In this document: one piece after another, positions 33,409 to 50,627 of the stretch
Numbering within the stretch: the first letter of the stretch is position 1
How the letters are laid out: each line of letters opens with the position of its first letter
IMG/VR virus record: IMGVR_UViG_3300033156_000392
Span: 9,254-73,253 of that record
Source of the DNA: a virus
Length of the DNA: 64,000 nt
Direction: 5' to 3' (one strand)
Position numbers and translations under genes: made by a program
The notes under the pieces: model-generated
Told to the model about the DNA's origin: nothing
The model's database searches: none
Seen by the model: the letters and a program-made list of their open reading frames with translations, nothing else

Positions 33409-33456
33409 GTTTATAAACCTATTCTTTGTTTATAAACTTCCGTACTTCTTTTATAC
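33409..33456. promoter_or_regulatory. Bidirectional GTTTATAAAC-centred promoter
   Basis: GTTTATAAAC 33428-33437 with TTTATAAA 10 nt to the left and TTTTATAC 11 nt to the right. Confidence 0.65.
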
Positions 33457-33473
33457 GAGAAGCTGGATGCGAA

Positions 33474-33614
33474 GTGACCTTCTTGTAACGTGTGCGGGAG
33501 GAAGGATGAGAGAGATGGTGAGGAGAGGTCTCCAGCACTCTCTCCTGCACTGTATGAAAGCCGTGTGGAGCCTCTCCTTACCCTTCTTTCTCTCCCAGCT
33601 GGCATGTATGTCAC
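33474..33614 (+). ncRNA. Candidate structured RNA (long hairpin)
   Basis: 33517-33534 pairs with 33566-33582 (17 bp, one G-U, one bulge); GTGAC/GTCAC closing pair; TATA at 33449. Confidence 0.45.
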
Positions 33615-33642
33615 CCTCTCTCACCTCTACTCAGAGGCGTTC

Positions 33643-34011
33643 TCAGTAGTATTCCTTACCGTCTCCGCTCTGGTCGGCTATGTCCTGTGGCGTAAGGCCG
33701 TAGAATCTCACCAAGTCTCTGAGAACGTGTACCTTTGCCTCGTCTCTGATTAGCTGTTCCACTGGCAGGGTGAAGAAGCCCATGAATATTGATCTCGCCA
33801 GCACGTACTTCTTTCTCTCGTCGATGTTCATCTTCTTTATTCTGTCCAGCACTCTGAACAGCTTGTGTACGAACTCTGAGCAGGCTTTTCCTGTTTCATC
33901 GACTAGCTTCCTGATGTCGTCCCTGTCCTTCTCCTCCACTTTCAGGTCGTTCAGAACCAAGTCCAGAGGGTCTACTCTCTCCTCTGTCTTCTTTTCCTCC
34001 ACTTCTGTCAC
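33643..34011 (-). CDS. Hypothetical protein
   Basis: GGAGGTGA RBS. Confidence 0.6.
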   Translation of the reverse strand: MTEVEEKKTEERVDPLDLVLNDLKVEEKDRDDIRKLVDETGKACSEFVHKLFRVLDRIKKMNIDERKKYVLARSIFMGFFTLPVEQLIRDEAKVHVLRDLVRFYGLTPQDIADQSGDGKEYY

Positions 34012-34181
34012 TTTCTCTCACCTCCTTTTTCTTTCTCCTTCTCAAGACTTTCTTGAGACAGTCCTCGTGGTAGATGCCCACTATTCTCATTGGATTGTAT
34101 CTGTTTCTTGAGAAGGTTGCCTGAACGAGAGCGTATCCTCTCTCCGTCTTCTCACCACAGACGGTGCAGAGGAGATTGCTC

Positions 34182-34520
34182 TCAGACTTCACTTCTCTCT
34201 TTCTTGACATCCATCAACCACCTCCTTATTCTGTTGTGCTCTCTTGACAGATTGAGAAGTGAGAGTGCCGCTCTTTCACTCTTCCTCTCCACCATCATCA
34301 TTATCTTGTCCAGATACTCTTTATACGCTTTCACGACGTTCTCCAGGATTTCCTCAGTAGAGCTTCCCTCAGTTTCTATCCGCACCGGAGGCACACTCTC
34401 CAGTCCAAGAGTCTGCATATATCTCGGCTCTGGATACCATATCGAGATGTATTTCTTGAGTGTACGAGCTATCTCTTTCACTTCTTCTCCAAGCTCTTTG
34501 AGACTCTCTCTTTTTTTCAT
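34182..34520 (-). CDS. Hypothetical protein
   Basis: ATGA overlap, RBS. Confidence 0.55.
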   Translation of the reverse strand: MKKRESLKELGEEVKEIARTLKKYISIWYPEPRYMQTLGLESVPPVRIETEGSSTEEILENVVKAYKEYLDKIMMMVERKSERAALSLLNLSREHNRIRRWLMDVKKERSEV

Positions 34521-34747
34521 TCTTCCTCCTCCCAGATTCTTCTGATGGTCGTGACCATGTACTTCAAGAGAGCCTTTGCCGGATTCTTTCTGACCTCGTC
34601 CTCGTTGACGTCCGCTAGAAGCTCTCCGAGAGTGTAGAGAGACTCTGCCTGATCGGAGGCTCTGACTATGTCTCTCTCTGAAAGACCTCCATTGAAAGCC
34701 TCCACTGCCTCTCTCACTAGGTCTAGAACTAGCTCTTCTATCTCCAT
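34517..34747 (-). CDS. Hypothetical protein
   Basis: Operon context. Confidence 0.55.
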   Translation of the reverse strand: MEIEELVLDLVREAVEAFNGGLSERDIVRASDQAESLYTLGELLADVNEDEVRKNPAKALLKYMVTTIRRIWEEEE

Positions 34748-34788
34748 CTCTCTCTCTTTCCTCCTCTCTCTTTGTTACTCTTCATGGC

Positions 34789-35562
34789 TCACTCCGTCTT
34801 CGGTAGGAGAAGGTCGAGAGCCACCGTCTCCAGAATTCTCTCTGCCAGTAGGTCCAGCTTCTTCTGCTTGTGTATCTCTGACTTGTACTTTCTACTGGTT
34901 ATGGCTGAAACTATCCTCTGGAAGCAGTCCCAGACAGTCATGTCCTCTATTTCCTTCTTTTGATGGTCTACGGCTATTCTCTGCTCTATTTTCTCTTTAA
35001 GTCTCTCTCCAGCCTTTATTCTCTGAAGAATGGCTGTATACTCCTCGTAATCAAGTTTTCTCTGTGCTAGCTTCTCCACTATCGGTTTCCAGAGCTCTAC
35101 GACCTTGTTTACCACCTTGAAGTAGTCCTGTACAGCGACGTCTATCTTTCCTCTGTGGGTCTTTCTGAAGGGTCTGGTGGCGGCCTTTGGGAGCTTGTAG
35201 TGGAAGCCTGTTACTCTGTGCACGAAGTCTATTTTGAGAGCGTTCTTGCCGTCAGCGGTGTTCATGACCTTTATCCCGACGTCGCTCTCCAGTGGGTACA
35301 CCGTCATCTGCCCTCTTCCTTCCCAATATATCACTCTCCCCTCGATCTCCTCCGGAAGGTTCTTGAGTGCCTCTCTGTAGAGATCTCTGAACTGCACCAG
35401 CTTGTAGTACTTCGAGACCACCGATATGGCTTTCTTCTTCCCTTTCTCTCTTATGGCTCTGAGCTCCTTCTGCCTCTCCCAGCTTCCGTTGTCGTCTATG
35501 GCTATGTCCGTCATCTCAAGCTCCGGTAGCTCTGCAACTCTCTCCAGTAGCTCTTTCTTCAC
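34789..35562 (-). CDS. DUF932-like protein
   Basis: SVVSKYYKLVQ, N..DG...L and H.G motifs. Confidence 0.6.
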   Translation of the reverse strand: MKKELLERVAELPELEMTDIAIDDNGSWERQKELRAIREKGKKKAISVVSKYYKLVQFRDLYREALKNLPEEIEGRVIYWEGRGQMTVYPLESDVGIKVMNTADGKNALKIDFVHRVTGFHYKLPKAATRPFRKTHRGKIDVAVQDYFKVVNKVVELWKPIVEKLAQRKLDYEEYTAILQRIKAGERLKEKIEQRIAVDHQKKEIEDMTVWDCFQRIVSAITSRKYKSEIHKQKKLDLLAERILETVALDLLLPKTE

Positions 35563-35575
35563 TTTCTACCACCTC

Positions 35576-36226
35576 CTAATTTAATAGTTTCTTTAGCTCA
35601 TCTTTAGGGATGAGAGCAATCTTGTCTGAGAACTTCTTCTTACTCTTCAGGATGAAGGCCTCTCCCTTCCTCAAGACACGTCTGTACTCTCCGAGAAGCT
35701 TCTTTCTCCTCTCTACAGCCCTATCGAAGTCCAGCAGGATGTTGAGTATCTTTCTATCACTAAGGTCTTCTATGTCCCTTCCACAATTCAGAGACCAGTA
35801 GAACTTTTGTACTTTCTTCATAATCTTTATCCCTTCCAATATCACGTCACCGAACTCCTCCAGTCCTTTCTCTCTGAGCCCGAAGAAGAACGTGTCTGGA
35901 AGTCCTTCTGAGAGAACATCTATCCTCTGGACGGTCCGGTACTTGTATATTCCACCACGTCTCAGAGTGTACTCTGAGTAGATGGATATTCTATTCTCCC
36001 AAGCAATGGCAGAGGCTATGAGATGTACAGTTTCTTCCATTCTCTCCATAAGGTCTCTGAGAACGGCTGGACTGATCTCTTTCTCTATCTCTTTCAGTGT
36101 CACCACTTTCTCTCTCCTCTCCGATACCAGCCTCTTGTACTCCTTCTCTTTGAAGAGGTTCACACGTTTCTGGAGGAGGCTTAGAGCCTTCAGCCTCTTC
36201 TTGAGCTCTTGGTCAATCATCCTCAT
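35576..36226 (-). CDS. Array paralogue 8 (coiled-coil family)
   Basis: DQELKKRLKAL...MEETVHLIASAI...RRGGIY...KKFSDKIAL. Confidence 0.75.
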   Translation of the reverse strand: MRMIDQELKKRLKALSLLQKRVNLFKEKEYKRLVSERREKVVTLKEIEKEISPAVLRDLMERMEETVHLIASAIAWENRISIYSEYTLRRGGIYKYRTVQRIDVLSEGLPDTFFFGLREKGLEEFGDVILEGIKIMKKVQKFYWSLNCGRDIEDLSDRKILNILLDFDRAVERRKKLLGEYRRVLRKGEAFILKSKKKFSDKIALIPKDELKKLLN

Positions 36227-36863
36227 CTCTCCCAAGTGAGTTCAGAGCTATCTCTGTTGAGAACTTATCGATGATCTCCTCTCTCAGCTCGTCTATCTTC
36301 TGTTTCAGAGGGAGTGTTCGTCTGTCTATCTTTCTGAGCTCTCTGAGCAGCTTCTCCCCTTCTATGAGCGTTTCAAGAGTGTTGTCGAGTGTGTCAACCT
36401 TGAAGTAGATAGAGTCCTTCCATACCTTCTTGAAGAGCGTGTCCACGTGCTTTCTGAGCTTGAGAGAGTATCTGAGAAGCTCTTTCATCCTCTTCATCTT
36501 CGTCTTTCTGAGCAGCTCTCGCAAATCTTCTTCATCTATTACGAGAAGATGTACTCTCTCTGGAGAGTCAGACCAGAATATCCCTTCTCTCGGGACGTAT
36601 GTGATAGCGTAGTCATCTAACTCCACTTTCACTTTCTCCGTGACCATAGCACCAGCCACTCTGTGTATCAGACCTTCTATGGCGTCTGGAAGAGGTGTAA
36701 CTCTTTCCATCAGCTTCCTCCTGAGTGCAACCAGTTCATCAAGGAGCTCTCTCTTCTCCTCTTTCATTCTCTTCTTCTCGTCCTCTACGTACTTCTGGAA
36801 CTCCTTCTCAAGCCTCTGGAGAGTCTTGACTCTCCTCTGTAAATTCCTGTCCGTTTCTCCCAC
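36213..36863 (-). CDS. Array paralogue 7
   Basis: DRNLQRRVKTL...IEGLIHRVAGAM...VPREGIF...DKFSTEIALNSL. Confidence 0.75.
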   Translation of the reverse strand: MGETDRNLQRRVKTLQRLEKEFQKYVEDEKKRMKEEKRELLDELVALRRKLMERVTPLPDAIEGLIHRVAGAMVTEKVKVELDDYAITYVPREGIFWSDSPERVHLLVIDEEDLRELLRKTKMKRMKELLRYSLKLRKHVDTLFKKVWKDSIYFKVDTLDNTLETLIEGEKLLRELRKIDRRTLPLKQKIDELREEIIDKFSTEIALNSLGRDEDD

Positions 36864-36870
36864 CTCTCTA

Positions 36871-37125
36871 TCAGAGTACGTCGGGGTACCTCTCCAGGAG
36901 GTACGATGCTGGGTATGGTCTCCCGTCGACTTTCTTCCCGTCTCTCAGGAGTATTATCACAGCTATTTCGTTGACGTTGTCCAAGAGTATGACGTCACTG
37001 GCCAGCTCTGAGGCAATGTTCTCAAAGACCTCCTCTCTAAGCTCTGCACCATATCTTTCCAACATTCTCTGGTCCACTCTCATCTCGGTTAGGATGCCCA
37101 TTCGCAGGCCTTCTATCTCTCTCAC
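36871..37125 (-). CDS. Hypothetical protein interrupting the array
   Basis: No array motifs. Confidence 0.5.
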   Translation of the reverse strand: MREIEGLRMGILTEMRVDQRMLERYGAELREEVFENIASELASDVILLDNVNEIAVIILLRDGKKVDGRPYPASYLLERYPDVL

Positions 37126-37296
37126 TCACTCTACCTCTGTGGTCCATAAATAGATGCAAGCGTTTCCACGTTCCATTTCTTCTCTGTACCCACGTTTGAG
37201 TTTCTTTCTCTTTTTCTCTGCATCCTTCCTTCTCTTGAATACATAGACCTCTTCAACGAGCCCTCTCCACTCCAGAATTACTGCGTACACTTTCAA
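37126..37296 (-). CDS. 56-aa hypothetical protein (not in ORF track)
   Basis: GGAGGTGA RBS, TTG start, MKVYAVILEW...EVYVFKRRKDAE. Confidence 0.55.
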   Translation of the reverse strand: MKVYAVILEWRGLVEEVYVFKRRKDAEKKRKKLKRGYREEMERGNACIYLWTTEVE

Positions 37297-37991
37297 ACTA
37301 TCACCTCCTTTTTTTCTCGTTCTCGTCTTGAAGGAAGAAGAGCCAAGATGTGAGAGAATTTCTCCAAGCTCCTCCTGATGAACTCGTCCGCCTCTCTAAT
37401 AGCTTTCTTCCCTTTCTCCCTCCTTTTCAGCAGCTTCTCTCTCAGTTCATCATAGTGTATCAGGATGTCTACTATTCGGTCCTCTCCGAGGTCCACTCCA
37501 AGAGTCGTTAAGTCCAAATTCTCCAAGGGAGCGAAACGTTCGTGTAAGGAAGTGTAACGTGCTAGCCCCTTCAGCTTCCTTGCTATCTTTCTTCCTCTCT
37601 TGATGCATTGACCATACTGTATCAGGAGTTCGTCGTCCACAGTCCCAAGAAGGTACAGCTCTGGAAACTCTCTCTCGTCGGAGAGAATGTCCACTGCGTA
37701 ACGTGCTCCGTACCGATATATCCCATCTTTTCTTATACTGTAGCTCCTGCCGAGAATGACTTTGCCCTTCACTAAGAAAATGGCAGAAGCTATGACGTCC
37801 ATCGTCTCTTCCATCTCCTCCAGCTTCTCTGCAAACAGAGTCGTTTCACTCTCTCTGTAAAGAGCTCTGAGAGCTCTCAGGTCTTCTCTTCTCTCTCTGA
37901 TGATCCGTTTGTGCTCCCTCTCGATCATTCTCTCCACTCTCCTCCGGAGCTTTTCAAGAGCCTCTACTCGCTTCTTCAGCTCTCTGTCCAT
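37293..37991 (-). CDS. Array paralogue 6
   Basis: MDRELKKRVEAL...MEETMDVIASAI...RKDGIY...EKFSHILAL. Confidence 0.75.
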   Translation of the reverse strand: MDRELKKRVEALEKLRRRVERMIEREHKRIIRERREDLRALRALYRESETTLFAEKLEEMEETMDVIASAIFLVKGKVILGRSYSIRKDGIYRYGARYAVDILSDEREFPELYLLGTVDDELLIQYGQCIKRGRKIARKLKGLARYTSLHERFAPLENLDLTTLGVDLGEDRIVDILIHYDELREKLLKRREKGKKAIREADEFIRRSLEKFSHILALLPSRREREKKEVIV

Positions 37992-37992
37992 G

Positions 37993-38619
37993 TTACGACA
38001 CTCTCCCTCTCTTGAGCGTTGACAGAGCAAGCTCCTCCGAGAACTCCTCCATCATTCTCTCCTTCAGCTTCTCCAGTCTCTCTTCTATCTCTCTTCTCTT
38101 CTCTAAGTGTGCGTTGAGCTTCTCGAGAATTGTGTCGGCGTTCTGGAGTGCCTCTATCTGGCCGTGTAGGTAGCCAAGAGATGGTATGTCTGAAGGTTGT
38201 CCGGAACTTCTGTAGCTCCGATAGTTCGCCATTATCCTTTGGTACTCTTCCAAGCACTCTCCGAGTACTTCAAGTTTCCTCTCTCCGGACTCCTTGAGAT
38301 ATTTCAACACTGGTGAGGAGAAGTATTTCAAGTAGATTGGGTACTTATGTCTGTAGTAGAAAATCCCTCTCCCGGGTCTGAGGCTAATCTGCTGGCTCAC
38401 TGTCTTCGTCTCTGTATACATGTTTCCGGCTATCTGATGGAACATTCGTTCTATGTCTTCTCCCAAGTCTTTGTACACCTCTGCTTTCTTCTCCTCTATT
38501 TCCTTCAGGACGTCTTCTCTCTCCTTGACCAGCTCCATCTTCCTCTTCTCTATGAACTCCTCAACCCTCTCTCTGAGAGTTTCAAGCCTCTTGAGCTCCT
38601 CATTCAGCTTCTCATCCAT
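37993..38619 (-). CDS. Array paralogue 5
   Basis: MDEKLNEELKRL...IERMFHQIAGNM...LRPGRGIFY...EEFSEELALSTL. Confidence 0.75.
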   Translation of the reverse strand: MDEKLNEELKRLETLRERVEEFIEKRKMELVKEREDVLKEIEEKKAEVYKDLGEDIERMFHQIAGNMYTETKTVSQQISLRPGRGIFYYRHKYPIYLKYFSSPVLKYLKESGERKLEVLGECLEEYQRIMANYRSYRSSGQPSDIPSLGYLHGQIEALQNADTILEKLNAHLEKRREIEERLEKLKERMMEEFSEELALSTLKRGRVS

Positions 38620-39265
38620 TCTTCTTCCTCCTCAACGAGTACATACTCGCTTCCTCAGAGAATTTCTCCAGCATTTCTCCTCTCAGCTTCTCGATTTCTC
38701 TCTCAATCCTGTCTTTCTCTCTCAGAGCTTCTTCCAGTCTCTCTTTCTCCTCGTCTATCGTCGACAAGTACTCTATCATCTCTATCCCGTGGTAGTCCGG
38801 TCCAGCGTAGTATGGAGGGCTCTCAAAGCTATGATACAGAGCCCGTAGTCCCTCGTACAAGCAGGAGAGTCTGTGTATGTAGAAGCCGAGAGCTCTCACT
38901 CTCTCGTTCTCAGAGCTCATCATACTTCTTCCAGCTCCATCGTCATAGAATATCGGTGCTCTGTGTTTCTTTCTGTGGTAGAAAATTCCTCCGTTCGGTC
39001 TTATCACTAAGTATTCGGAGTTCAGATAGGGCTTCTGTAGAGGTATCTTGATGAGCTTGTTGCTCATCTCTCCAGCTATTCCGTGTATCAGTTCTTCCAT
39101 CTCGTTTGTCGAGGGTGGAGAGAGTTCTTTATATAGCTCTCTCACCCTCATTAGCTCTTCGTGCTTGGAGTTCACGATTGTGTCTATCCTGCTGTATATG
39201 AAGTTTCTCACTCTCACCTTCAGTGTCTTCAGCCTTTCAGCCTCTTTGACAAGCTTAACGTCCAC
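38612..39265 (-). CDS. Array paralogue 4
   Basis: MDVKLVKEAERL...MEELIHGIAGEM...IRPNGGIFY...EKFSEEASMYSL. Confidence 0.75.
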   Translation of the reverse strand: MDVKLVKEAERLKTLKVRVRNFIYSRIDTIVNSKHEELMRVRELYKELSPPSTNEMEELIHGIAGEMSNKLIKIPLQKPYLNSEYLVIRPNGGIFYHRKKHRAPIFYDDGAGRSMMSSENERVRALGFYIHRLSCLYEGLRALYHSFESPPYYAGPDYHGIEMIEYLSTIDEEKERLEEALREKDRIEREIEKLRGEMLEKFSEEASMYSLRRKKNG

Positions 39266-39266
39266 A

Positions 39267-39884
39267 CTATCTCCTCCTCTCCTTCAGGAAGTAGAAGGTG
39301 GCCTCGGTACTCATCTTCTCCAGAAGTCGTCCTATCTCTCTCCAGATTTCTCTGAACGTCTTCTTCTTGAATTTTAGGACTTCTCTTCCGTACTTCAGGT
39401 GACTGTCCAAGCGAGCAATGAAGTACAACCTCTCTCTCTTCTGCTCAGGGACGGCTGGAAGAAGGTTTCTTACCGAGAAATAGGAGTCCAGCAGTCCACG
39501 GACTCTTCCAAGAGTCTTAGCAATCTCTCTTACCTTCTCGTTCTTCGAGTTCAGCATCCCAGCTATCCCAATCAACGAGAGTACGTCGACTCTCAAAATC
39601 TTCTCTCTCTTCTTTCCTCCGTACAGTCCTTTCCCCGGACGTATGACCAATTTTCCACACCGGACTGGCTTCTCTGCTATCTGCCCAAGCAAGCCCTGTA
39701 TGAGGTCCTCCACCTTTAATATCTCAGGATAAGGGTTTGTTTTATCTATTAGCTCTGTGTATTTCTTGAGCTTCCTCATTCTCCTTCTCTCCAGCTTCTC
39801 CATCTCTTTCTCCACAAAGGTAAACATGGCTGTCTCAAGCTTCTCCAGAGACTTAACTCTCGCAAGGAAGTCCTCATCTCTCAC
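39267..39884 (-). CDS. Array paralogue 3
   Basis: DEDFLARVKSL...VEDLIQGLLGQI...IRPGKGLY...EKMSTEATFYFL. Confidence 0.75.
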   Translation of the reverse strand: MRDEDFLARVKSLEKLETAMFTFVEKEMEKLERRRMRKLKKYTELIDKTNPYPEILKVEDLIQGLLGQIAEKPVRCGKLVIRPGKGLYGGKKREKILRVDVLSLIGIAGMLNSKNEKVREIAKTLGRVRGLLDSYFSVRNLLPAVPEQKRERLYFIARLDSHLKYGREVLKFKKKTFREIWREIGRLLEKMSTEATFYFLKERRR

Positions 39885-40503
39885 GTTTCTCCCTCGACAG
39901 CAGATAGAGAGGAAGGTCTTCTGAGAACTCGCTATAGACCTCTCTCTCGATCTCTCTAATCATCTCCTCAATTTTTCTTTTCCTTCTCAGCTTTCTTTTG
40001 AGTTCTCTCAGTACGGTCTTGTGGTTGAGAGCCAAAGACGCTTTCTCCTCCTCCGAAGTATTCTCTATCAACCAGACTCCGTACAGACAGGCATCCAGTT
40101 TCTCGTACAAAGCAGAAATTCTCTCCGAGAAGTCCGCCACCCTTATCGCTCTCTTCTCACCAGTTTCTCTGAGCTTCTTTATGAGCGTCTTAGAGGGGTA
40201 GTACGTAAGCAACATTCCTCCCTCATCCGAGAGTCTGACTCCTCTCCCCGGAACGATGAGTAGACTCAGACCGTTTATCTCTCCAAGATACACAATTTCT
40301 CTCAGGTCGGCAGAGAGAACGTACTGCAGGAAGTCCTCCAAGTTTCTCCTGACTCTCCATAGGTGTCCGTCCAATAGCTCGTGTGCGACTCTCTCTATCT
40401 TTCTAAGCTCTACTCTGTGCTCTCTCAGTATCCTCTTTATTTCAGCTTTCTTCCTGTAGACGTACTCTTCAAAAGTTAGTCCCTTCTCACGCTTCAAAGT
40501 CAT
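39874..40503 (-). CDS. Array paralogue 2
   Basis: LEDFLQYVL...IVPGRGV...SEFSEDLPLYLL. Confidence 0.7.
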   Translation of the reverse strand: MTLKREKGLTFEEYVYRKKAEIKRILREHRVELRKIERVAHELLDGHLWRVRRNLEDFLQYVLSADLREIVYLGEINGLSLLIVPGRGVRLSDEGGMLLTYYPSKTLIKKLRETGEKRAIRVADFSERISALYEKLDACLYGVWLIENTSEEEKASLALNHKTVLRELKRKLRRKRKIEEMIREIEREVYSEFSEDLPLYLLSREKRER

Positions 40504-41170
40504 CCCTCCTTCTGAGAGCGTACATAGAAATCTCTGTGGGGAACTCGCTCGTGAGTTTCTCCACTAGCTTCGCTAGCTCCATTCTCAAGTGTCTCGCTTC
40601 CTCAGCCGCCTTCTCTGCTCTTTCCATCTTGAAGTCTATGAAAGCCAAGAACCAGAGTCGTTCGACTGTGTCAGAGGGTATCTCTGGCACTGAGCCCCTT
40701 ATTTCTCTGTATCCCTGGACGATCTCGAGGAACGTATCCAGTCTCTCTCCCAGTTTTTTCTGCTTCTTGTCCTTACTTCCGTATAGCTCTATGATGACGT
40801 TTGTGATTTCTCTTATCGGAAGAGTCAGCAGAACGTACTTTATTCCCAAGTTTATCCCTACTTCGGGACTCTCTGCCGTCTTCACCATCCTCTCCAGCCG
40901 TATTTTGCCTCTCGTCACCTCTGTCAACAGTTCTCGTAGGAGAGATTCAACAAGACATAGCTCGTCTCCGAGTTTCTCCAAGTCTTTCAGAGTGTCGATG
41001 TACTCTCTCATTTTCTTCTCTCCTTCTTTCAGCATTCTCTCCTTCTCGCTGAGTATGAAGCCTCTCATTCCTCTCTCAAGCCTCTCAAGGGCGACCAGTG
41101 TTTTCATAATACTCCTCTCCGGCATTTGTTCTTTTTTCTCCATTCTACCAGCCACTACTTCAGAAGCCAT
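40487..41170 (-). CDS. Array paralogue 1
   Basis: MKTLVALERLE...VESLLRELL...SPEVGI...SEFPTEISMYAL. Confidence 0.7.
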   Translation of the reverse strand: MASEVVAGRMEKKEQMPERSIMKTLVALERLERGMRGFILSEKERMLKEGEKKMREYIDTLKDLEKLGDELCLVESLLRELLTEVTRGKIRLERMVKTAESPEVGINLGIKYVLLTLPIREITNVIIELYGSKDKKQKKLGERLDTFLEIVQGYREIRGSVPEIPSDTVERLWFLAFIDFKMERAEKAAEEARHLRMELAKLVEKLTSEFPTEISMYALRRRDDFEA

Positions 41171-41700
41171 ATACAGAGCCTCTCTGAGTGCTTCATAACG
41201 AAGTCCTTGAGAATTTCTTCCGCCTCCTCCGCTTTCTCTCTCGTTTCCATCAGCATCTTCGCTAGCTCTCTCTCTATTCTCTTCCTATGTCTATAGAAGC
41301 ACTCATAAGAGGTTGGGTCCTCCGGGTTAATAAATCTCTCTCCTCTCTTTATTCGGAGTTTAGAGTCTATAATGAGGGTAAATTCACTATTTAGTCGTTT
41401 CTCTCTCTTCTTTAGAGTAAATATCTTGTTTATTTTTCTGTATATGGAAAATAGTCCCTTTATGACCTCTATTTTGTCTTTACTGAGAGAATATATATCT
41501 ATTCGTTCGCCTTCCCAAGTGTAGATGCCGTTTCTCCTAAGTAGCACCTCTCTCTCCAGCTCACTCTCTATCAACTTGAGTACTTTGGCTACTATATTCC
41601 TGTGTGCTCTTCTCCAGATGCCCTCCACGTACAGGTGGAGCTCGCTCAGATGTTGGTAGACGCTCCATTCTCTCAACCAGAAGGCTTCTTCTCTTCTCAC
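41155..41700 (-). CDS. Probable divergent array member
   Basis: LRRNGIY...RIDI as in paralogues 6 and 8; ends KHSERLCIWLLK. Confidence 0.6.
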   Translation of the reverse strand: MRREEAFWLREWSVYQHLSELHLYVEGIWRRAHRNIVAKVLKLIESELEREVLLRRNGIYTWEGERIDIYSLSKDKIEVIKGLFSIYRKINKIFTLKKREKRLNSEFTLIIDSKLRIKRGERFINPEDPTSYECFYRHRKRIERELAKMLMETREKAEEAEEILKDFVMKHSERLCIWLLK

Positions 41701-41710
41701 ACAATCTCAC

Positions 41711-42100
41711 CTATCTTCTTTTCAGGAGCTTCCAGAGTCCAAGCTTCCCTATGAAGGTCCAGTACTTTTCTCTCCCCAAGAATCTCTCTCCCCATCTCTC
41801 GGAGAAGGCTTTGGGGCAGTCTATGACGTGCTTCGGGAGAGTTTCTATGATGTATTTCTTCAGTTTCTCCTCGCTCTCGAAGCTCAAGTAGAAGCTCTTG
41901 TCTTTTCCGGCTACTCTGACTATCTCTGCTTTCTTGTCCAGAGCACCTCTCAGTATCTCTGACGCTATCGAAGGGTCTATGGACTTGAAGGGGAAGCTGA
42001 GTATCCTCCACTCTCCCTCGTAGGCTCTGTGAACCCAGAGAGCCTCTCTCCACGTGGGGAGGAGTCCCTCTATGTAGCACAGCAGTTTCTTCCTACTCAT
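41711..42100 (-). CDS. Hypothetical protein
   Basis: Follows a palindrome; ends KLGLWKLLKRR. Confidence 0.55.
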   Translation of the reverse strand: MSRKKLLCYIEGLLPTWREALWVHRAYEGEWRILSFPFKSIDPSIASEILRGALDKKAEIVRVAGKDKSFYLSFESEEKLKKYIIETLPKHVIDCPKAFSERWGERFLGREKYWTFIGKLGLWKLLKRR

Positions 42101-42122
42101 ACTTCTTCCTCGCTCTGTAATC

Positions 42123-42143
42123 CTAAAATAATCATTATTTTAG
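42123..42143. repeat. 21-bp perfect palindrome
   Basis: CTAAAATAAT-C-ATTATTTTAG. Confidence 0.9.
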
Positions 42144-42147
42144 CTCT

Positions 42148-42519
42148 CTACTGCTGGCTCGCTCCCTCTGACAGGATCTCAATCGCTATGTTCTGGTATA
42201 TCTCGTCCCAGTCCTCATCAGTCATTCCAAGCACTGTTTTGCTCTCTCTTATGAACTTCTTCGTGTACTTCTTCATATATTTGGAGAGGTACTTGATGAA
42301 CTCTATCATTTTCTTTCTCCTCTTGAATATGAAGAATATGTACGATTTCTTCACAAGCGGAATTTCTATTTCTCCCCTCAGTGCTATTCCTCTCTTCACT
42401 ATCTCCGTAAGCGTCTCACTCCTAAAGCCGTACGCTTTGAAAAACACTCCGTTAAAGCCGGAATTGTACCACAAGAGAGTCCCGAATATCTTCATTTCTC
42501 CTATCACTTTGTCCACCAT
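42148..42519 (-). CDS. Hypothetical protein, paralogue of 42562..42936
   Basis: LTEIVKRG, F.R..K..EF..YLS, LG...E shared; flanked on both sides by palindromes. Confidence 0.7.
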   Translation of the reverse strand: MVDKVIGEMKIFGTLLWYNSGFNGVFFKAYGFRSETLTEIVKRGIALRGEIEIPLVKKSYIFFIFKRRKKMIEFIKYLSKYMKKYTKKFIRESKTVLGMTDEDWDEIYQNIAIEILSEGASQQ

Positions 42520-42538
42520 CTCACCTCTCTTTCTTTTG

Positions 42539-42559
42539 CTAAAATAACAGTTATTTTAG
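42539..42559. repeat. 21-bp perfect palindrome
   Basis: CTAAAATAAC-A-GTTATTTTAG. Confidence 0.9.
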
Positions 42560-42561
42560 GA

Positions 42562-42936
42562 CTACTGAGTCCTCTCAGCAAGCCTGTTTACGACGACGTT
42601 GCTCTCTATAGTCTGGTACTCCTCCTCACTCAGTCCAAGTTTCTCTCTTCCTTCGAGTCTGAACTTCCTCGTAAGACTCCTCAGAACGGTGCTGAGGTAG
42701 AGGAGAAACTCTCTCAATTTCTCCATACGTTGAAACCGGAGAACCAGCGTCGCTCTCGACTTAGACCGAAACGCTGACGTGAACAGCAGGAGAGTCGCTC
42801 CTCTCTCCACACCCTCTTTCACTATGTCCGTGAGAGCCTGTGCCGGAAGGGTGTCTGCTCTGAAACTTATGTCTCTCTCCATCTCGAACCAGACCGGAAT
42901 CTTCTTCTCGGTCATTCTGCCTATCATCAGAGTCAT
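42562..42936 (-). CDS. Hypothetical protein, paralogue of 42148..42519
   Basis: LTDIVKEG...FQRMEKLREFLLYLS...LGLSEEEY; start taken at ATG 42936. Confidence 0.7.
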   Translation of the reverse strand: MTLMIGRMTEKKIPVWFEMERDISFRADTLPAQALTDIVKEGVERGATLLLFTSAFRSKSRATLVLRFQRMEKLREFLLYLSTVLRSLTRKFRLEGREKLGLSEEEYQTIESNVVVNRLAERTQ

Positions 42937-42955
42937 ATGCTCGCCTCTCTCTTCC

Positions 42956-44215
42956 TCACTCTTCCTTCCGTATTCTGGTAGTTCTCCCAAATGGTACTTC
43001 TTCCTCTGCCTTACCGTCTGGTGTCAGTATCCAGAGTGTCTCGTGTCTTCCTCTCCTCTCTGGGAAGTCTCCGTACCCGTCGGTGAAGTAAATCAGCAGT
43101 TTCGCTCTCTTCTTATGCTCTCTTATCCACTCGAAGACTGGTCTGAAGTCCGTCCCACCGTATCCAGTCCTCTTGAAGACTCTCTTTCTGGAGACCTTCT
43201 CAAGAGGTTCTGCCATCTTGATGCTGGCGTCGCACTCTATGTATGTCCCTCTCAGTGTGTCTCTGTGTATGTCGAATATTCTCCTAATCTCTCCCATAAA
43301 CTGAGAGTAGTCCTCGTCAGATATTGACCCAGACGTGTCCACCGCTATCACTATGTCTATCTTCTCCTTGAGTACTGATGGGAAGTATGTCCCGAGTGTC
43401 TGAGAACGTTTGTGCGGTCTTCGCCAAGTGTAGTCTTTTGGTATCTCTTTCGTGATGTATCTCCATAGCATCTGCTTCCACCCAAGTTTAGACGGTAGTA
43501 TCTTGTCTATCAGTTTCTGTAGTCCTGCTGGCAGTTTTCCCTGTACCTTAGCGAATGTGGCGGCCTTGATGGTGATGTCCTTCCAGAACTCTCCTATGTC
43601 CGTCTCCGGATGTTTAAAAGGCTCTTCGTTGCCTCCGGAGCCCTTCTCGTCCTTCTTTCCCTCGTTGTCTTCTCCCTCTTCGCCATAGAACCCTTCTTTC
43701 TTGTCGTTGTGGGTGTCGAACTGCTTCTGGAGTATTCCCTTTCCTTCTCTGTCTCCCTTTCCGTCTCCACCACTTCCAGAGACGGGTATGTGTATCTTCT
43801 TTGCGTTCTTCATCAAGTAGTCGTAGACCGCCTCTACCACCTTGCCTCTGAACGTCTCCAGCGGCTGTATTGCGAAGTCTGGCACTGGACTCCCAGACTC
43901 GTAGAGCATAGTGTTCACGACGTAGTCTCCCGCTATATTCCAGACGACTGGCTCTCTCCCCTGTCTCCTCAACAAGTGCTCAAGTATCAGATGGAGTATC
44001 TCGTGCTTTATGACGAACTGTAGTTCTATGTCTCCCAGCTTCTTCACGAAGTCTGGATTGTACGGTACGTTTCCGTATCTGTCTACTCCCATCGTCGGTA
44101 TCTTCTTGTTCTCTCTGAACTTCAGGTATGTGGCTATGTAGGAGAAGAACGGCTCTTCTTCCTGTAGGAGAACTATGGCTCTCGTTATTCTCTCTCTTGG
44201 AGTCAGTTGAAACAC
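42956..44215 (-). CDS. DUF2201-type HExxH metallopeptidase-like + vWA domain protein
   Basis: TMGVD, HEILH, WNIAGD..VN; vWA MIDAS DTSGS, GGTDF, YFTDG. Confidence 0.9.
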   Translation of the reverse strand: MFQLTPRERITRAIVLLQEEEPFFSYIATYLKFRENKKIPTMGVDRYGNVPYNPDFVKKLGDIELQFVIKHEILHLILEHLLRRQGREPVVWNIAGDYVVNTMLYESGSPVPDFAIQPLETFRGKVVEAVYDYLMKNAKKIHIPVSGSGGDGKGDREGKGILQKQFDTHNDKKEGFYGEEGEDNEGKKDEKGSGGNEEPFKHPETDIGEFWKDITIKAATFAKVQGKLPAGLQKLIDKILPSKLGWKQMLWRYITKEIPKDYTWRRPHKRSQTLGTYFPSVLKEKIDIVIAVDTSGSISDEDYSQFMGEIRRIFDIHRDTLRGTYIECDASIKMAEPLEKVSRKRVFKRTGYGGTDFRPVFEWIREHKKRAKLLIYFTDGYGDFPERRGRHETLWILTPDGKAEEEVPFGRTTRIRKEE

Positions 44216-44292
44216 TTTCTACCACCTCCTTATCTTTCTCTCTCAAACTATGTATGGGGATCGCTAATAAAGTGTATGGGAGAGAGACGTTC

Positions 44293-45027
44293 TTACTTGT
44301 CTCTCTCCAGAAGTTTCACGGAGACGTATGGTGCGGCTATCATATAGGCCGCCCTCACTCTTTCCTCTAAGTCGTCTCTGAACTTCCTGAACTCCTCTAC
44401 TCTCTTTCTGACTTCCTGTCTGATGAACTCCTCGTGTATGTAGAAGAGAGTCAGAGAGTCGAGGTCGCTGTAGAGTCGTGTCCTTATACCGTAAAGTTTG
44501 CTCTGAACCTCTATGCTTGTGTACGGAAACGCTATCCACAGTTCGACTGTCTCTGTCTCCACTGTATACTTCGTCTTCCACTCCACGCCCTTCACTTGCT
44601 TCAGACACTCTATCAGAGTCTTCAGCATTTCCTTCTTTGTGGGTCTGACGTTCGCTCTCGCTTCCTCTGTCTGGAGAAGGTCTATGAACTTCTCTATCTT
44701 ATATGACCTCGCATAGACGCTGTCGTCGTATACCTTGAACTCAAACACACTCCCTCGCCCACTGTTGTAGTACCCTTTGTAGACGAGTCCCGTGTTCGTT
44801 ATGGCGACGTCGTCAAGGTCTGCTCTCTTCCTCATCAGCCCTCTCGACAGTGTTCTTATCAGTTTCTCGTAGTTTGTACAGAGAGTATGTACGTCTTGGG
44901 AAATCTTCGTCACCTCTTTGTCCACCTCGCTCTTCCACTCCGTCAGTTCGTCTCTGAGTTCGTCTACCTCTCTCCAGAACTCGAAGTTCTGGGGCTGTGT
45001 GTACTCCTGCTCAGGCATCTCCACCAC
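44293..45027 (-). CDS. Coiled-coil protein between AAA+ and vWA genes, possible distant array member
   Basis: Helical termini; YEKLIRTL...ITNTGL; ends PYVSVKLLERDK. Confidence 0.6.
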   Translation of the reverse strand: MVEMPEQEYTQPQNFEFWREVDELRDELTEWKSEVDKEVTKISQDVHTLCTNYEKLIRTLSRGLMRKRADLDDVAITNTGLVYKGYYNSGRGSVFEFKVYDDSVYARSYKIEKFIDLLQTEEARANVRPTKKEMLKTLIECLKQVKGVEWKTKYTVETETVELWIAFPYTSIEVQSKLYGIRTRLYSDLDSLTLFYIHEEFIRQEVRKRVEEFRKFRDDLEERVRAAYMIAAPYVSVKLLERDK

Positions 45028-45033
45028 TCTGTC

Positions 45034-46131
45034 TCAGAAGGTGTACTTGACTATCGTCTTTGAAATCTCCTTCCACTCCGGTATCTTTGCTGAGACTCTC
45101 CGTACGTACTTCTGGTGTCTGAGTACCAAGTTTCTCATCAGGACTATTCCGAACTCTGGTTTTTCCCACGCTGTCTCTGTCAACTGTGCTATCTTACAGT
45201 ATGCTCTGAAGAACTTCTCGTCCTCTTTGAAGAAGTGTATCAGAGCAGATGTCAGAGCCCATCTCTCGTTGAGAGCAGTTATGTCTCTCACTCTGTTGGG
45301 GTCTCTCACGAAGTCCTCCACCTTGTACTTCTTGACCAGTCGTGAGAACTCTATGAACTCCTTCGCTATGCCGTTGCCCACCGATGACGCCACGAGTATC
45401 TCTATCTCTTTCTCGTCCTCTACGTCAGAGATTAGTTTAGAGGCTCTCCACCAACTCCTCGGAGTCGGGAAGGCTCTCTCCTCAGTGTTCTCTTCCAACT
45501 TGAAGAGATAGTCTGCTCTGAAGTTCAGAAATGCCTGTATCCTGTGGTCTACACCGTTCTTCATAGCCCACCGTGTCCAGATGTTTATGTGTGGCACTCT
45601 GAGTTCAACCCAGTCAAATCTGTTCTCAAGTGGCTTGGCCATCTCGAAGGTGTGTGCTCTGTCTTCCTCTTTGTTTCCAGCACCTATCACCACGTATCCC
45701 TCTGGGAGTACGTAGTCTCCGAGTTGTCTGTCCAGAATCAACTGGTAGCACGCACTCTGTATGCTCGGTGGGGCTAAGTTTATCTCGTCTAAGAAGATAA
45801 TCCCTGCCCCTGTCTTTGGGAACCAAGATGGGGGTATCCACTTGGTTATTCCACCGTGTCCGTTCTCCATTATCTTAGGCAGTCCGAGAAGGTCGCTTGG
45901 CTCTAACTGAGAAACTCTCCTGTCTATAAGGCAGAAGTGCTTCTCAGAGTTTATGTCCTCTGGTCGCTCTGAGTACTCGAGTTTCATAGACTCCGCTATC
46001 TCTTTGGCAGTCTTCCTGACTGTGTCCGACTTGCCTATCCCTGTCCTCCCCTGTATACAGAGAGGTATCCTCTTCTCATAGTGTCTCCGTATGACTCTCT
46101 CGAGTTCTTCGTGGTTCACTTCTCTCACCAT
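45034..46131 (-). CDS. MoxR/dynein-related AAA+ ATPase
   Basis: Walker A GRTGIGKS, Walker B IIFLDE, AGN sensor, L.NRF Arg finger, FPTPRSW. Confidence 0.92.
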   Translation of the reverse strand: MVREVNHEELERVIRRHYEKRIPLCIQGRTGIGKSDTVRKTAKEIAESMKLEYSERPEDINSEKHFCLIDRRVSQLEPSDLLGLPKIMENGHGGITKWIPPSWFPKTGAGIIFLDEINLAPPSIQSACYQLILDRQLGDYVLPEGYVVIGAGNKEEDRAHTFEMAKPLENRFDWVELRVPHINIWTRWAMKNGVDHRIQAFLNFRADYLFKLEENTEERAFPTPRSWWRASKLISDVEDEKEIEILVASSVGNGIAKEFIEFSRLVKKYKVEDFVRDPNRVRDITALNERWALTSALIHFFKEDEKFFRAYCKIAQLTETAWEKPEFGIVLMRNLVLRHQKYVRRVSAKIPEWKEISKTIVKYTF

Positions 46132-46548
46132 TTCACATCACCTCACTTTCTTTCTCCTCCTTCTTGTATGCCCGTATCATCGAGGCTGTGCCTCTCTATG
46201 GCCGTGAAGTCTACTCGTTCTTATCCTCTCCCTACTCTGCTGTACTCTCTCCAGCACTCCAAGTGTGTCATAGGTAACTCTCTTCTCTCGTACTTGAAGG
46301 TGTCTCTCCGGACTCTCCCTCTGTCTATGACCACCACTCTGTCGCCTTCCTTGAGTCTTCCTCCACATACGGGACAACGTATATCTCCCAAACTCATCAC
46401 TCTCCTTTCTACTCTCGTTTAAATGTGTGCTCACCAGTCATCGGTCTTAGCACACTTTGAGCAGTAGTTTCCGTATCTCTCTTTCTCGTACTCCGTCAAG
46501 TGCTCTCCACAAGTCAGACATTTTTTCACCTTTCCACCTCTTTCTCTC

Positions 46549-46809
46549 TCAGTCTATTATTTTGATGTCTTTCTCCCACTCTCTCACGAGTTCTTCGACC
46601 GACTTGTTCTCTCCAAAAAACTCTGGATATTTCTTAATCTGTTCGATGATGGAAGTCGTCTTAGGCTTCTCTTCCGTCTCTATGTGGACGTTCGCTGGGA
46701 CTTTGTATTTCAGCGTTCCAGTGTCATCAACTACTGGGACTGTTTTCTCTTTGTCGATGTAAGGGAGTTCTTCGTACTCTCTACAGGAGATTAGTTTCCA
46801 TTCCGTCAC
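46549..46809 (-). CDS. Hypothetical protein sharing an N-terminal module with 47951..48706
   Basis: EW..I..REY..L.......P.VD..G.L...VPA. Confidence 0.6.
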   Translation of the reverse strand: MTEWKLISCREYEELPYIDKEKTVPVVDDTGTLKYKVPANVHIETEEKPKTTSIIEQIKKYPEFFGENKSVEELVREWEKDIKIID

Positions 46810-47074
46810 TTCTTCTTCACCTCCTATCTCTTTCTTTGTATGTCATTGAGGCTATGCCTCTCCATACTCGTGATGCTTCAGTCTGCTCTTCAGTATTCTC
46901 TCGGTCTGCTTCATATACTCCAGACGCCTGAGAACCCGCTTCTTCTTCTCTCTCAGTTTCTCCACTATGTCGTCAATCACTTCTACGAGTCTCTCTGCGT
47001 TCTTCTTGTACTCTTCTATGCTCTCCAGAACAGACTCTATTGTTTCTCTCTCCTTCTTGTTCAGAGAATCACCA

Positions 47075-47239
47075 CTACAAGCCACAAGCCTTTCTGAATC
47101 TCTCTTCGTCGAAGTTCGGGTTGTCGTAGGCGAAGAGATTGCTGAAGGCTCTAACTGCTCTCTCCTTGACACTCTGTACGTCTATCGTCTTCAGAATCTC
47201 TGCCACCTGCTTGTAGTGTCTCCTTTGGAAGTCAGGCAT
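47075..47239 (-). CDS. 54-aa small viral protein (not in ORF track)
   Basis: GAGGTGA RBS; MPDFQRRHYKQVAEIL...DNPNFDEERFRKACGL. Confidence 0.65.
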   Translation of the reverse strand: MPDFQRRHYKQVAEILKTIDVQSVKERAVRAFSNLFAYDNPNFDEERFRKACGL

Positions 47240-47439
47240 TTGCTCTCACCTCTCTTTATTTTCTATTCACAGGGTCTATCTTGTATATCTTCCTGAGCCT
47301 GTGTAGGAGTTGCTTCTCATTCCTTGCGTGTATCTCTCCCACTTTGTTTCCTCTGTCCCATATCTCCACGTCTCTAAGGCTCAGGCAGACCAACACGTAG
47401 TTTCTCACGGTTTCACCTCTCTCTTCCTCTCTCCGGATC

Positions 47440-47613
47440 TCACTCCATCGCTATCTCCAGCAGGAGAGTGATGAGCGTCCCTGCCACAACTCCTCTCAAG
47501 AGGGCTGTGGGGCTCTCTCTCCAGCCGAGCACAAGTTGTATTCCCAGCACCAAGACCAGAGCCGCCACCAGTAGCACCGTCTCTCTAAGAGTCGGTTTCT
47601 CTCTCTTTTTCAT
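47440..47613 (-). CDS. 57-aa two-TM membrane protein (not in ORF track)
   Basis: MKKREKPTLRETVLLVAALVLVLGIQLVLG...; follows a palindrome. Confidence 0.55.
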   Translation of the reverse strand: MKKREKPTLRETVLLVAALVLVLGIQLVLGWRESPTALLRGVVAGTLITLLLEIAME

Positions 47614-47624
47614 ATCTCTATCTC

Positions 47625-47645
47625 CTAAAATAACTGTTTCTTTAC
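47625..47645. repeat. 21-bp palindrome copy
   Basis: CTAAAATAACTGTTTCTTTAC. Confidence 0.75.
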
Positions 47646-47897
47646 GACCATCTCAACTCTCCGAACATCACTATCTCAGGCGTTATGAGAGGCGTTATGG
47701 AGAGTGGTATGCCGGAGTGTCTCATAACGTCTATACCGTCAAATGAGCACTCTATCAGCACCAGAGTGGACGAGGAGAATAGTGTATTCCTCACCTCTCT
47801 CCTCTCTCCCTCTACTCCTACTCCACTCTCTCTAACGCCTCTAACGCCTCTCTTTCCTTCTTTTCTCACTATATCTCCTCTTTTCTCTCTACGAATG

Positions 47898-47918
47898 CTA
47901 AAAAAACAATTGCTTTAG
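47898..47918. repeat. 21-bp palindrome copy (degenerate)
   Basis: CTAAAAAAACAATTGCTTTAG. Confidence 0.6.
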
Positions 47919-47950
47919 GCTTCTCTCAGGCAGTTTCTACCGTAGGGCGG

Positions 47951-47971
47951 CTAAAATAACTGTTTCTTTAG
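47951..47971. repeat. 21-bp palindrome copy
   Basis: CTAAAATAACTGTTTCTTTAG. Confidence 0.8.
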
Positions 47972-48706
47972 TCTCCGTTTGCTATGAAAATGACTCTGTG
48001 CCATCGCTTCAGATGTATCTCCGGGTGCTGTGGGTGCTTTATTTTTTCCTTTTACGTAGATGCCTGTCAGTCTGTATTCTTCCAGATGTTCTATGTCTTG
48101 GACGGCTCTCACTCTGATTTCCTCCGCCTTGTGGTATCCGAGTTGCCACTTCACCGACTTTCTCAAATGAAGTCTCACTGCCTTCGGAATTCTCTGTCTC
48201 GGTGGTCTCTCCGGTACGAGGTACAGGTCTCCCTGTCTCTTTACTTCCTTCTCTCTCTTCAGGACTTCCTCTGGGAAGAGTTTCTTTAGTATCTCTGACG
48301 GCTTGTCTTTCTTTCCCTTCTCCCTGAAGTAGAGTCTGCTCTCTGTGTACTGCTCTCCGTCTTTCAGTACGACGAGACACACCGGGGTTGTTGTCTGGAA
48401 GTAATAAATCTCCAGACCGAACTTTCGGAAAATCTTTCCCTCTTTTGCTGATTGTAGTGTCTGGTAGTTTTTCACAAGGTATCCAGCGAGTACTCTCTGC
48501 GTCTCCTCGTCCACGTCTTTGAACAACTCTCTCACTTTCGTTAGAGCCCTCTCTCCGATGCTCTGCTTCTCTGAGACCCACTCTGCTGGCACTCTCCACC
48601 TCAGTTTCCCTTTCTCGTCCACGAAGGGTATTGCTCTCTCTTGCTTGCTCCAGTTTAGTCTATTGTACTCTCTCCTCCCTATCGTAGTCCACTCCATCGC
48701 TTTCAC
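47951..48706 (-). CDS. RQGD-motif hypothetical protein, probable frameshift near C-terminus
   Basis: RQGDLYLVP, H.A; adjacent frame after the T6 run (48042-48047) reads KIKHPQHPEIHLKRWHRV. Confidence 0.6.
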   Translation of the reverse strand: MKAMEWTTIGRREYNRLNWSKQERAIPFVDEKGKLRWRVPAEWVSEKQSIGERALTKVRELFKDVDEETQRVLAGYLVKNYQTLQSAKEGKIFRKFGLEIYYFQTTTPVCLVVLKDGEQYTESRLYFREKGKKDKPSEILKKLFPEEVLKREKEVKRQGDLYLVPERPPRQRIPKAVRLHLRKSVKWQLGYHKAEEIRVRAVQDIEHLEEYRLTGIYVKGKNKAPTAPGDTSEAMAQSHFHSKRRLKKQLF

Positions 48707-49516
48707 CTCCTCCCACTCTCTCTTGGAGTGAGTATGAACTCGCTCTCTCTCATCTGTAGCACTCTCTCAAGGCTCTCAAGGCTCTTCGTCGCTACTCCCT
48801 CTCCGTCTATCACGACTGCCAAGACGACTCTATCTCTGTCTCTCACGATCTCCCTCTCTCCGTTTCTTCTCTCATCAGAGCCTTGCTCTCTGGAGGTATC
48901 TTGATATTTGCTCCAGAGTGCTCTCACGGTCTCTATCCATCCACCTCACCTGTGTGCTATCTGTATCCTTCTCAGACACAAGGGACAGACCGGACGTCCT
49001 CTCCAGTCTCTCATAGAGTCTGCAGTCCAGACTCTCTCGCAGGTGGGACACTTCACTATCTCTATCCGTCTGCCCGTGAGTCTCTCGCTCTCGTTAAGAA
49101 GTTCTCCTTCCATATCTCTCACCTCTCTACTCCCATATATCGTGGTTGTTAACACAGTCGCAACAGTTCTGTACTATCCAGTCTTCGTCCGTCTCGCTTG
49201 CTCTGTACTCATTCCCACATACCGGGCACGTCCACACTTCTTCTTTCTCCATTTATCTCACTCCTTCTCTCACAGTCTCTTCTTCTCCACCTTCTCCATC
49301 AGACTGTCTCCGACTTTGATTTCCTCGCTCCCGACGTAGTTTATCCAGAGTTTGCCCCGTACCTCTTCCACGAATACCAGCCCTATATGTTCACTGCTGA
49401 AGGCGTTCTCTCTTCTCACCTCAAGACAGACGTAGTTCCCTTTCTTCATCTCGTCTATCCGAATCTCTAAACCCATTCACATCACCTCTCTATCTCTTCG
49501 TCTCTCTAAGAAGTTG

Positions 49517-49537
49517 CTAAAATAACAGTTATTTTAT
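49517..49537. repeat. 21-bp palindrome copy
   Basis: CTAAAATAACAGTTATTTTAT. Confidence 0.85.
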
Positions 49538-50221: not shown

Positions 50222-50275
50222 TTCAAACTAACACAAAAAATAAAGGAAAGGGAGAGGTTGGGGCGTGTTCTCTCC

Positions 50276-50581: not shown

Positions 50582-50627
50582 TTTCGTCTCACCGAGTAGG
50601 TATCGACACGTGAGTATTTAAGTCTTT

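Follow-up and report, generated by a model that had tools for sequence, protein, structure and literature searches.

An orphan family of eight diverged tandem paralogues beside a MoxR-like ATPase and zincin-vWA gene pair in a tailed virus of a probable hyperthermophilic archaeon

In the 73,253-bp viral contig IMGVR_UViG_3300033156_000392 (IMG/VR), of which bases 9254-73253 make up the 64,000-nucleotide window analysed here (coordinates below are window positions unless stated otherwise), eight co-oriented, tightly packed genes on the minus strand (35576-41170) form a tandem array of true paralogues, a family that is new by sequence and without specific fold match. The array lies downstream of a gene for a MoxR-type AAA+ ATPase (45034-46131) and of a gene that fuses a HExxH zincin peptidase to a vWA-like domain (42956-44215). 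An initial annotation of the region, made from the sequence alone, had recognised this arrangement and had proposed that the ATPase/vWA operon feeds the array, taken as a diversified set of adaptors or clients. The gene arrangement and the paralogy were confirmed, and for the array we tentatively favour, by analogy and at somewhat less than an even chance, a lineage-specific set of diversified binding proteins that works independently of the pair and is housed in an accessory-gene slot.

Composition-corrected BLASTP linked the eight proteins to one another at E values of 1e-5 to 1e-29. A hidden Markov model (HMM) of the eight, run on the 974 six-frame open reading frames (ORFs) of the 73-kb genome, found the members at E 6e-55 to 2e-79, with the next match at E 0.005 and no further array copies elsewhere. 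Moreover, each copy scored between 36 and 115 bits against a leave-one-out HMM, while 500 shuffles per copy reached at most 9.1 bits and reversed sequences stayed below 0. Because the leave-one-out scores exceed those of shuffled and reversed sequences, the similarity lies far above generic coiled-coil composition, beyond which the initial annotation had required it to go.

All genes of the block are on the minus strand, at coordinates that agree with the first description, and run in the order ATPase, 244-aa ORF, zincin-vWA, three small ORFs, 181-aa ORF, the eight array ORFs and a 257-aa ORF. The array itself begins with 40487-41170 (227 aa; leave-one-out 53.6 bits), followed by 39874-40503 (209 aa), the most diverged member (36.3 bits with a best shuffle of 6.7, and hhalign E 3e-33 against the family profile), 39267-39884 (205 aa, net charge about +20; 53.3 bits), 38612-39265 (217 aa; 115.3 bits), 37993-38619 (208 aa; 109.8 bits) and 37293-38030 (88.4 bits), whose product is 232 aa long when translation begins at the ATG at 37991, as it does in the public protein record P0005 (232 aa). 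Two small unrelated ORFs (56 and 84 aa, 36871-37296) then break the array once, the HMM score of 36871-37125 being 4.1 bits and reached by 24 of 1000 shuffles. The last two members are 36213-36863 (216 aa; 79.2 bits) and 35576-36235 (216 aa from the ATG at 36226; 76.4 bits, BLASTP 1e-29 to 37293-38030).

Two further genes had been put forward as probable members, and they fared differently. The 181-aa ORF at 41155-41700 stands as a marginal ninth member lacking the N-terminal helix: it was found by hmmsearch at E 0.015-0.028 over model positions 55-213 (11.0 bits, matched by 1 of 1000 shuffles) in an alignment that takes in an R-x-x-G-I-Y hairpin and the terminal helix, and by hhalign at E 0.007 over 51 columns, the hairpin among them. 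The 244-aa ORF at 44293-45027, between the ATPase and vWA genes, was rejected as a member (HMM -0.8 bits, a score reached by 671 of 1000 shuffles; hhalign E 0.16), and so was the 257-aa ORF at 34789-35562 that closes the block (HMM -0.3 bits, reached by 359 of 1000 shuffles; hhalign E 0.15). Beyond it on the minus strand, a 112-aa ORF (34182-34520) is weakly similar to the C-terminal half of the family (hmmsearch E 0.005, with 1 of 1000 shuffles reaching the score).

Consistently with the initial annotation, which did not recognise the family, database searches left it an orphan. The profile of the eight, searched against 1.84 billion representative proteins, recovered the window's own eight alone, each of them a singleton cluster known from one 73,253-base contig. 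Pfam and NCBIfam gave no match above cut-off for any of the eight and no family common to more than one member; PHROGs, searched with the eight and 41155-41700, returned one weak coiled-coil match (0.0025) and otherwise nothing; the family profile had no match among PDB sequences (best E 0.028); and the best ESM Atlas score, 0.77, was under the level of a lead.

AlphaFold2, run on copy 38612-39265 with the eight-sequence alignment, predicted a single protein with confidence (mean predicted local distance difference test, pLDDT, 90.6; predicted template modelling score 0.78) as a helical bundle with a small sheet. In the model, a kinked N-terminal helix (residues 3-47) and a short helix (54-66) are followed by a three-stranded sheet (72-96) and by helices 110-116, 121-145, 156-168, 170-201 and 203-216. 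Foldseek against PDB and BFVD found no match at E <=0.001, and the best VIA-align Z scores, 7.6 (48,161 chains compared) and, on a further look, 7.2, lie within the tool's stated background for helical models, all matches being generic helical bundles.

The common plan that had been read from the letters is visible in the alignment of the eight: an N-terminal helix, an E-x-x-[IL]-H-x-[IL]-A-G helix, a G-I hairpin and a C-terminal KFS...L..L.R helix. Column scores likewise bore out constant ends around a variable middle, with conservation concentrated in residues 1-40, in the E57...G65 helix (where E57 is invariant among the eight), at G93-I94 of the hairpin and in residues 200-213, and with variability at residues ~41-55, 66-90, 96-120 and 130-170. 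Net charge ranges across copies from -3 to +20, five of the eight being strongly basic (isoelectric point 9.5-10.1, up to +20) and the other three neutral or acidic, and no copy has a hydrophobic segment. The C-terminal motif was also considered as a tag common to the proteins of the operon; this was rejected, as an HMM of the C terminus matches the eight alone (E <=4e-9, next 0.34).

The copies are deeply diverged, with terminal branches of 0.7-2.1 changes per site in a tree that contains two well-supported pairs only, 35576 with 37293 and 39267 with 40487, neither of them adjacent. Since all eight frames are intact at such deep divergence, we infer that every copy has been kept by selection. 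Start and stop codons overlap or abut throughout the block, and the purine-rich ribosome-binding site of each gene sits in the R/K-rich last codons of the preceding gene. A recurrent promoter-like motif, of which the window has 12 occurrences where 0.5 would be expected, does not appear from 33437 to 51825. Gene junctions of the leftward region repeatedly carry a 21-bp palindrome (32807, 42123, 42539, 47625, 47951 and 49517), a possible operator, promoter element or terminator, with weaker copies at 20625, 31322 and 35576. The copy at 42123-42143, which has one central variant, lies about 22 nt upstream of the start codon of 41711-42100, the first gene of the array-containing block. Given this placement of palindrome and promoter motif, the array may be transcribed alone or jointly with the ATPase genes.

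The two upstream genes proved to be what the initial annotation had taken them for, by Pfam, PHROGs and motifs alike. The ATPase (365 aa) matches Pfam AAA_5 (1.1e-5, 25.9 bits, cut-off 22) and phrog_1297 (1.4e-80); its Walker A (GxxGxGKS) and Walker B (DE) motifs are invariant in all 12 aligned relatives, as are residues G28, G31-S35, D115, E116, N153, R171 and R225 in 12 of 12 sequences. These relatives are named 'MoxR family ATPase' by their source records, the closest (P0010, P0011) being 51% identical. NCBIfam returned nothing, and a CbbQ/NorQ-like label was dropped because the ATPase profile has no PDB match at E 0.001. The zincin-vWA protein (419 aa) matches DUF2201_N (2.5e-39) and DUF2201 (1.1e-19) above the Pfam cut-off, and phrog_1314 (5.8e-85). 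Both its zincin motif (HEILH...H) and its MIDAS motif (for metal ion-dependent adhesion site; DTSGS) are intact, with H71, E72, H75, H80, D293, T294, S295, G296, S297, T355 and D379 invariant in 15 of 15 sequences; the peptidase part weakly matches MJ1213 PDB chains (E 0.003), and by Pfam the protein has a peptidase domain and no C-terminal effector domain.

By similarity, the two genes represent the pair known as N4 gp24/gp25, and tblastn matched the ATPase in 835 phage records, N4 gp24 included. In N4-like phages the pair is counted among 14 core genes, as 'Unknown' and 'vWFA domain' in the middle genes (PMC4193335), and Iyer et al. 2021 describe a jumbo-phage MoxR-vWA chaperone pair with an N-terminal metallopeptidase, for which they predict a role in virion assembly or processing by analogy with the Acidianus two-tailed virus (ATV) proteins p618/p892 (PMC7824862). 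Literature searches, outside which subscription journals lay, found no demonstrated function of the pair, the DUF2201 papers being silent on function, and no papers on paralogue arrays beside it.

We fetched 27 viral loci with ATPase relatives and ran the family HMM on the ORFs of 28 viral loci. A DUF2201 gene lies within about 3.3 kb of the ATPase gene in all 27 related loci and in the window, and the array family is absent from all 27, which keep the pair (best HMM E 0.0017); hhalign of the family profile against 78 gene families of the loci and genome gave a best foreign E of 0.0077. The genes flanking the pair vary from locus to locus. Among 23 non-redundant loci, left after dropping L001 (other query) and the near-duplicates L003, L014, L021 and L026, in-locus paralogues were not commoner near the pair, with 17 of 252 genes within five genes of it versus 31 of 466 farther away (odds ratio 1.0, p = 1). 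What speaks for the proposal that the ATPase/vWA operon feeds the array is position, an adjacency in one genome. All homologues of the family are on this one contig, which leaves a single genome for judging its co-occurrence with the pair.

The position itself is informative. The DUF932-like 257-aa protein that closes the block (34789-35562; Pfam DUF932 0.0046, below cut-off) has detectable relatives only at L013:12698-13498 (BLASTP 3e-4) and L006:13225-13965 (0.002), the former immediately following DUF2201 and the latter separated from it by three tiny ORFs, an arrangement that hints at a conserved ATPase / vWA / DUF932-like block. Because the DUF932-like gene adjoins or nearly adjoins DUF2201 in these two loci, the three small ORFs and the array of the window can be seen to fill a slot of about 7.4 kb inside that block, a placement compatible with an insertion hotspot and with a functional partnership alike. 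A complex prediction of the vWA protein with an array member scored 0.04 against a mark of 0.32, which is no evidence either way.

As independent binders, the eight (perhaps nine) genes would constitute an old, lineage-restricted family in a tailed virus that is hyperthermophilic and probably archaeal, and the product of each would be soluble, about 24 kDa in size and folded as a helical bundle. Constant among the copies are the helices at both termini, the E-x-x-[IL]-H-x-[IL]-A-G helix and the R-P-G-x-G-I-[FY] beta-hairpin; net charge differs by copy, as do the strands, loops and helices of the centre, so that a common core would carry a copy-specific surface, each copy for another host or viral partner (a packing deduced from secondary structure and conservation). 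The genes would be expressed as a single translationally chained block and would serve a role of the host-takeover or anti-defence accessory type, from a slot between the conserved zincin-vWA gene and the DUF932-like gene and with no need of the ATPase machine. We observed directly that the genes are paralogous and orphan, how conservation is distributed along the proteins, and the chaining and synteny of the genes; paralogy and orphan status, the variable middle, the 27 loci that keep the pair without the family and the missing enrichment of paralogues all favour such binders; binding function, targets and independence from the ATPase are what we infer from them.

Several points weigh against this reading. 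The interpretation of the proteins as binders is drawn from analogy, and the family is carried by one genome only, so its turnover cannot be judged. The ATPase / vWA / DUF932-like block that encloses the array is otherwise conserved, the array shares its strand, and the promoter motif is absent throughout 33437-51825; a functional link with the ATPase machine would suit such a placement equally well. Moreover, in known MoxR-vWA pairs the client is usually encoded adjacent (CbbQ/O, NorQ/D, CoxD/E). ATV p618/p892 is likewise a MoxR-vWA pair with a client encoded nearby (PMC4124505).

We consider it somewhat less likely that the array is a partner set of the MoxR-like ATPase / zincin-vWA machine, in which the core docks on the vWA domain (MIDAS) or on the ATPase and the variable centre picks the target, or in which the copies are themselves clients to be remodelled or cleaved. 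Such a partnership would account for the shared strand, the close packing with no promoter motif between, and the location of the array between two genes, DUF2201 and the DUF932-like gene, that are neighbours in L006 and L013; the intact HExxH and MIDAS residues and Walker motifs are consistent with a working machine, the invariant acidic E57 could act as a MIDAS ligand, and MoxR-vWA pairs generally act on clients encoded nearby, as ATV p618/p892 do on helical virion proteins (PMC4124505). Set against this are the pair's presence without the family in every related locus, the lack of paralogue enrichment beside it, the palindrome and three unrelated small genes that separate the vWA gene from the array, and the restriction of the C-terminal motif to the array, so that the operon proteins have no common tag. 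The most specific form of such a partnership, exchangeable adaptors with one docking core and different recognition surfaces that would program the ATPase/zincin-vWA machine to remodel or cut a panel of host proteins, we regard as rather unlikely; if true, it would make the widespread gp24/gp25-type pair of phages an adaptor-driven host-takeover protease whose adaptor repertoire is exposed in this virus.

It is less probable still that the array encodes virion or assembly proteins, such as tail or appendage parts or scaffolds, assembled by the MoxR-vWA chaperone and perhaps trimmed by the zincin. The assembly/processing role predicted for the pair by Iyer et al. 2021 (PMC7824862), the interaction of ATV p618/p892 with helical virion proteins (PMC4124505), the virion protein genes near the gp24/gp25 homologues of roseophage RPP1 (PMC4193335) and the predicted long-helix bundles of the array proteins would all suit it, but the terminase, portal and tail-fibre genes are distant from the array, which belongs to the leftward non-structural region, the proteins have no likeness to PHROG structural families, and structural genes would rarely form orphan families of eight very diverged copies. 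Finally, nucleic-acid-binding or regulatory proteins (genome-organising or transcription-modulating) unrelated to the ATPase are very unlikely in our view, since the strongly basic character of five copies and the recurrent palindromes, which need a binding protein, are offset by the three neutral or acidic copies, by the failure to detect a DNA-binding fold or family, and by the palindromes flanking the small three-member family rather than the array.

This small family (41711-42990), between the vWA gene and the array, is a second tandem family of three minus-strand ORFs: paralogue 1 at 42562-42990 (142 aa from a TTG, with the ATG at 42936 the likelier start), paralogue 2 at 42148-42519 (123 aa) and paralogue 3 at 41711-42100 (129 aa). 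BLASTP linked the first two at 3e-12; paralogue 3, which is 17% identical to paralogue 1, was assigned by alignment only, its BLASTP comparison not being significant. No family match was found for the three. The palindrome copies at 42123 and 42539 (42539-42559, at a gene junction; repeat families D1, I2 and I9) bracket the middle gene.

The 244-aa ORF between the ATPase and vWA genes (44293-45027) had no homologue and no Pfam, PHROG or NCBIfam family, and its single-sequence AlphaFold2 model was unusable (pLDDT 47.5). Many related loci carry ORFs of about 60-445 aa between the two genes. In L007, L009, L010, L018, L022 and L025, ORFs that measure about 250-445 aa separate the genes of the pair or flank it, as paralogue pairs in L007 and L009. 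No conserved third gene is claimed at this place, as the compared ORFs show no detectable relation to one another or to the 244-aa protein (best hhalign E from 0.0019 to 0.77).

No RNA run was among the public sequencing runs listed as containing the sequence. Two public DNA runs, X1 and X2 (possibly one data set filed twice), contained about 0.4 of the sampled words, and their short contigs cover 30 of 30 bins of 34000-46500, with no joints and with strain-level differences only. Contigs of these runs also match the array region up to 38538-38571, 39937-39946 and 44965 and then continue unlike it, two of the three points being near array gene boundaries; array content may vary among co-occurring strains.

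The genome is probably complete, because its first 114 bases recur at the contig end as a direct terminal repeat (G000:C1 1-114 and 73140-73253, in contig coordinates). Among its genes are those for a Mu-type portal, a large terminase, a family-B DNA polymerase and glycosyltransferases; no tRNA genes were found. Among cultured viruses, the polymerase and terminase come closest to those of haloarchaeal tailed viruses, at about 25% identity, and the IVYWREL fraction of the viral proteins, 0.453, corresponds under a published linear rule to growth near 90 C, an estimate that is rough because it is based on our own ORF calls. From gene content, the haloarchaeal-virus relatives and the IVYWREL fraction, the virus appears to be a head-tailed one infecting a hyperthermophile, probably an archaeon. 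Relatives of the ATPase in cellular genomes did not pinpoint the host, the best being from a Woesearchaeota metagenome-assembled genome (45% identity) and others from gammaproteobacterial ones (30-40%).

Tandem duplication is frequent in this genome. Three tandem paralogues at 56223-58886, in the rightward structural block, are probably tail fibres, the middle one having a Laminin_G_3 domain (4.7e-31). A second ATPase-like gene (31230-32330, 366 aa) lies in the leftward region, with a weak DUF815 match just under the cut-off (9.1e-5) and no PHROG or NCBIfam family. L010 and L018 carry relatives of three genes at 10936-13912 (318, 323 and 216 aa) with their order retained, and L009 carries a relative of one of them, in each case a few kb from the local ATPase/vWA pair; because they share these genes, L009, L010 and L018 are the nearest relatives found, with a rearranged layout.

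What we describe is, at present, a well-documented orphan multigene family from a single genome. It nonetheless adjoins a pair that N4-like phages have as part of their core and that jumbo phages and cyanophages commonly carry, and its copies, all eight or nine intact, are maintained by a kind of tailed virus that is barely known, the host here probably growing at about 90 C. If the copies are partners of the pair, they would provide a first handle on what it acts on; if they are independent, they would offer a ready set of binding scaffolds that are thermostable and fold well, as well as a candidate family for anti-defence in archaeal viruses.

Compared with known systems, the window's two upstream genes belong with the phage gp24/gp25 pair (N4; PHROG 1297 and 1314; jumbo phages), although neither the 27 related loci nor the listed phage matches are known to carry the array family. 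ATV resembles the window virus as a hyperthermophilic archaeal virus whose MoxR p618 and vWA p892 act on its own helical proteins p387, p653 and p800 (PMC4124505). It differs in that its vWA protein, in the account given of it by Iyer et al. 2021, has no peptidase domain (PMC7824862); moreover, its clients are virion proteins and not tandem paralogues, the window virus is head-tailed, and no sequence relation was seen behind the likeness. VMAP systems (Kaur et al. 2020, PMC7159879) share the combination of a MoxR and vWA core with a third, rapidly diversifying and mostly helical component, but these are described as cellular systems of multicellular bacteria, with effectors fused to the vWA protein and a VMAP-C of about seven strands, whereas the window encodes free-standing viral proteins of 24 kDa with a predicted three strands. 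The array had no match of any kind in Pfam, a library in which the presence of VMAP models is unconfirmed. Lineage-specific multigene families are well known in viruses, among them the paralogous anti-CRISPR families of archaeal rudiviruses and the hyperplastic regions of T4-like phages. Like these, the array is tandem, diverged, virus-only, non-structural and translationally coupled, and unlike them, with which it has no homology, it consists of larger copies (~210 aa) with a confident predicted fold of their own; as a multigene family confined to a virus and arranged in one translationally coupled block, it is of a familiar kind.

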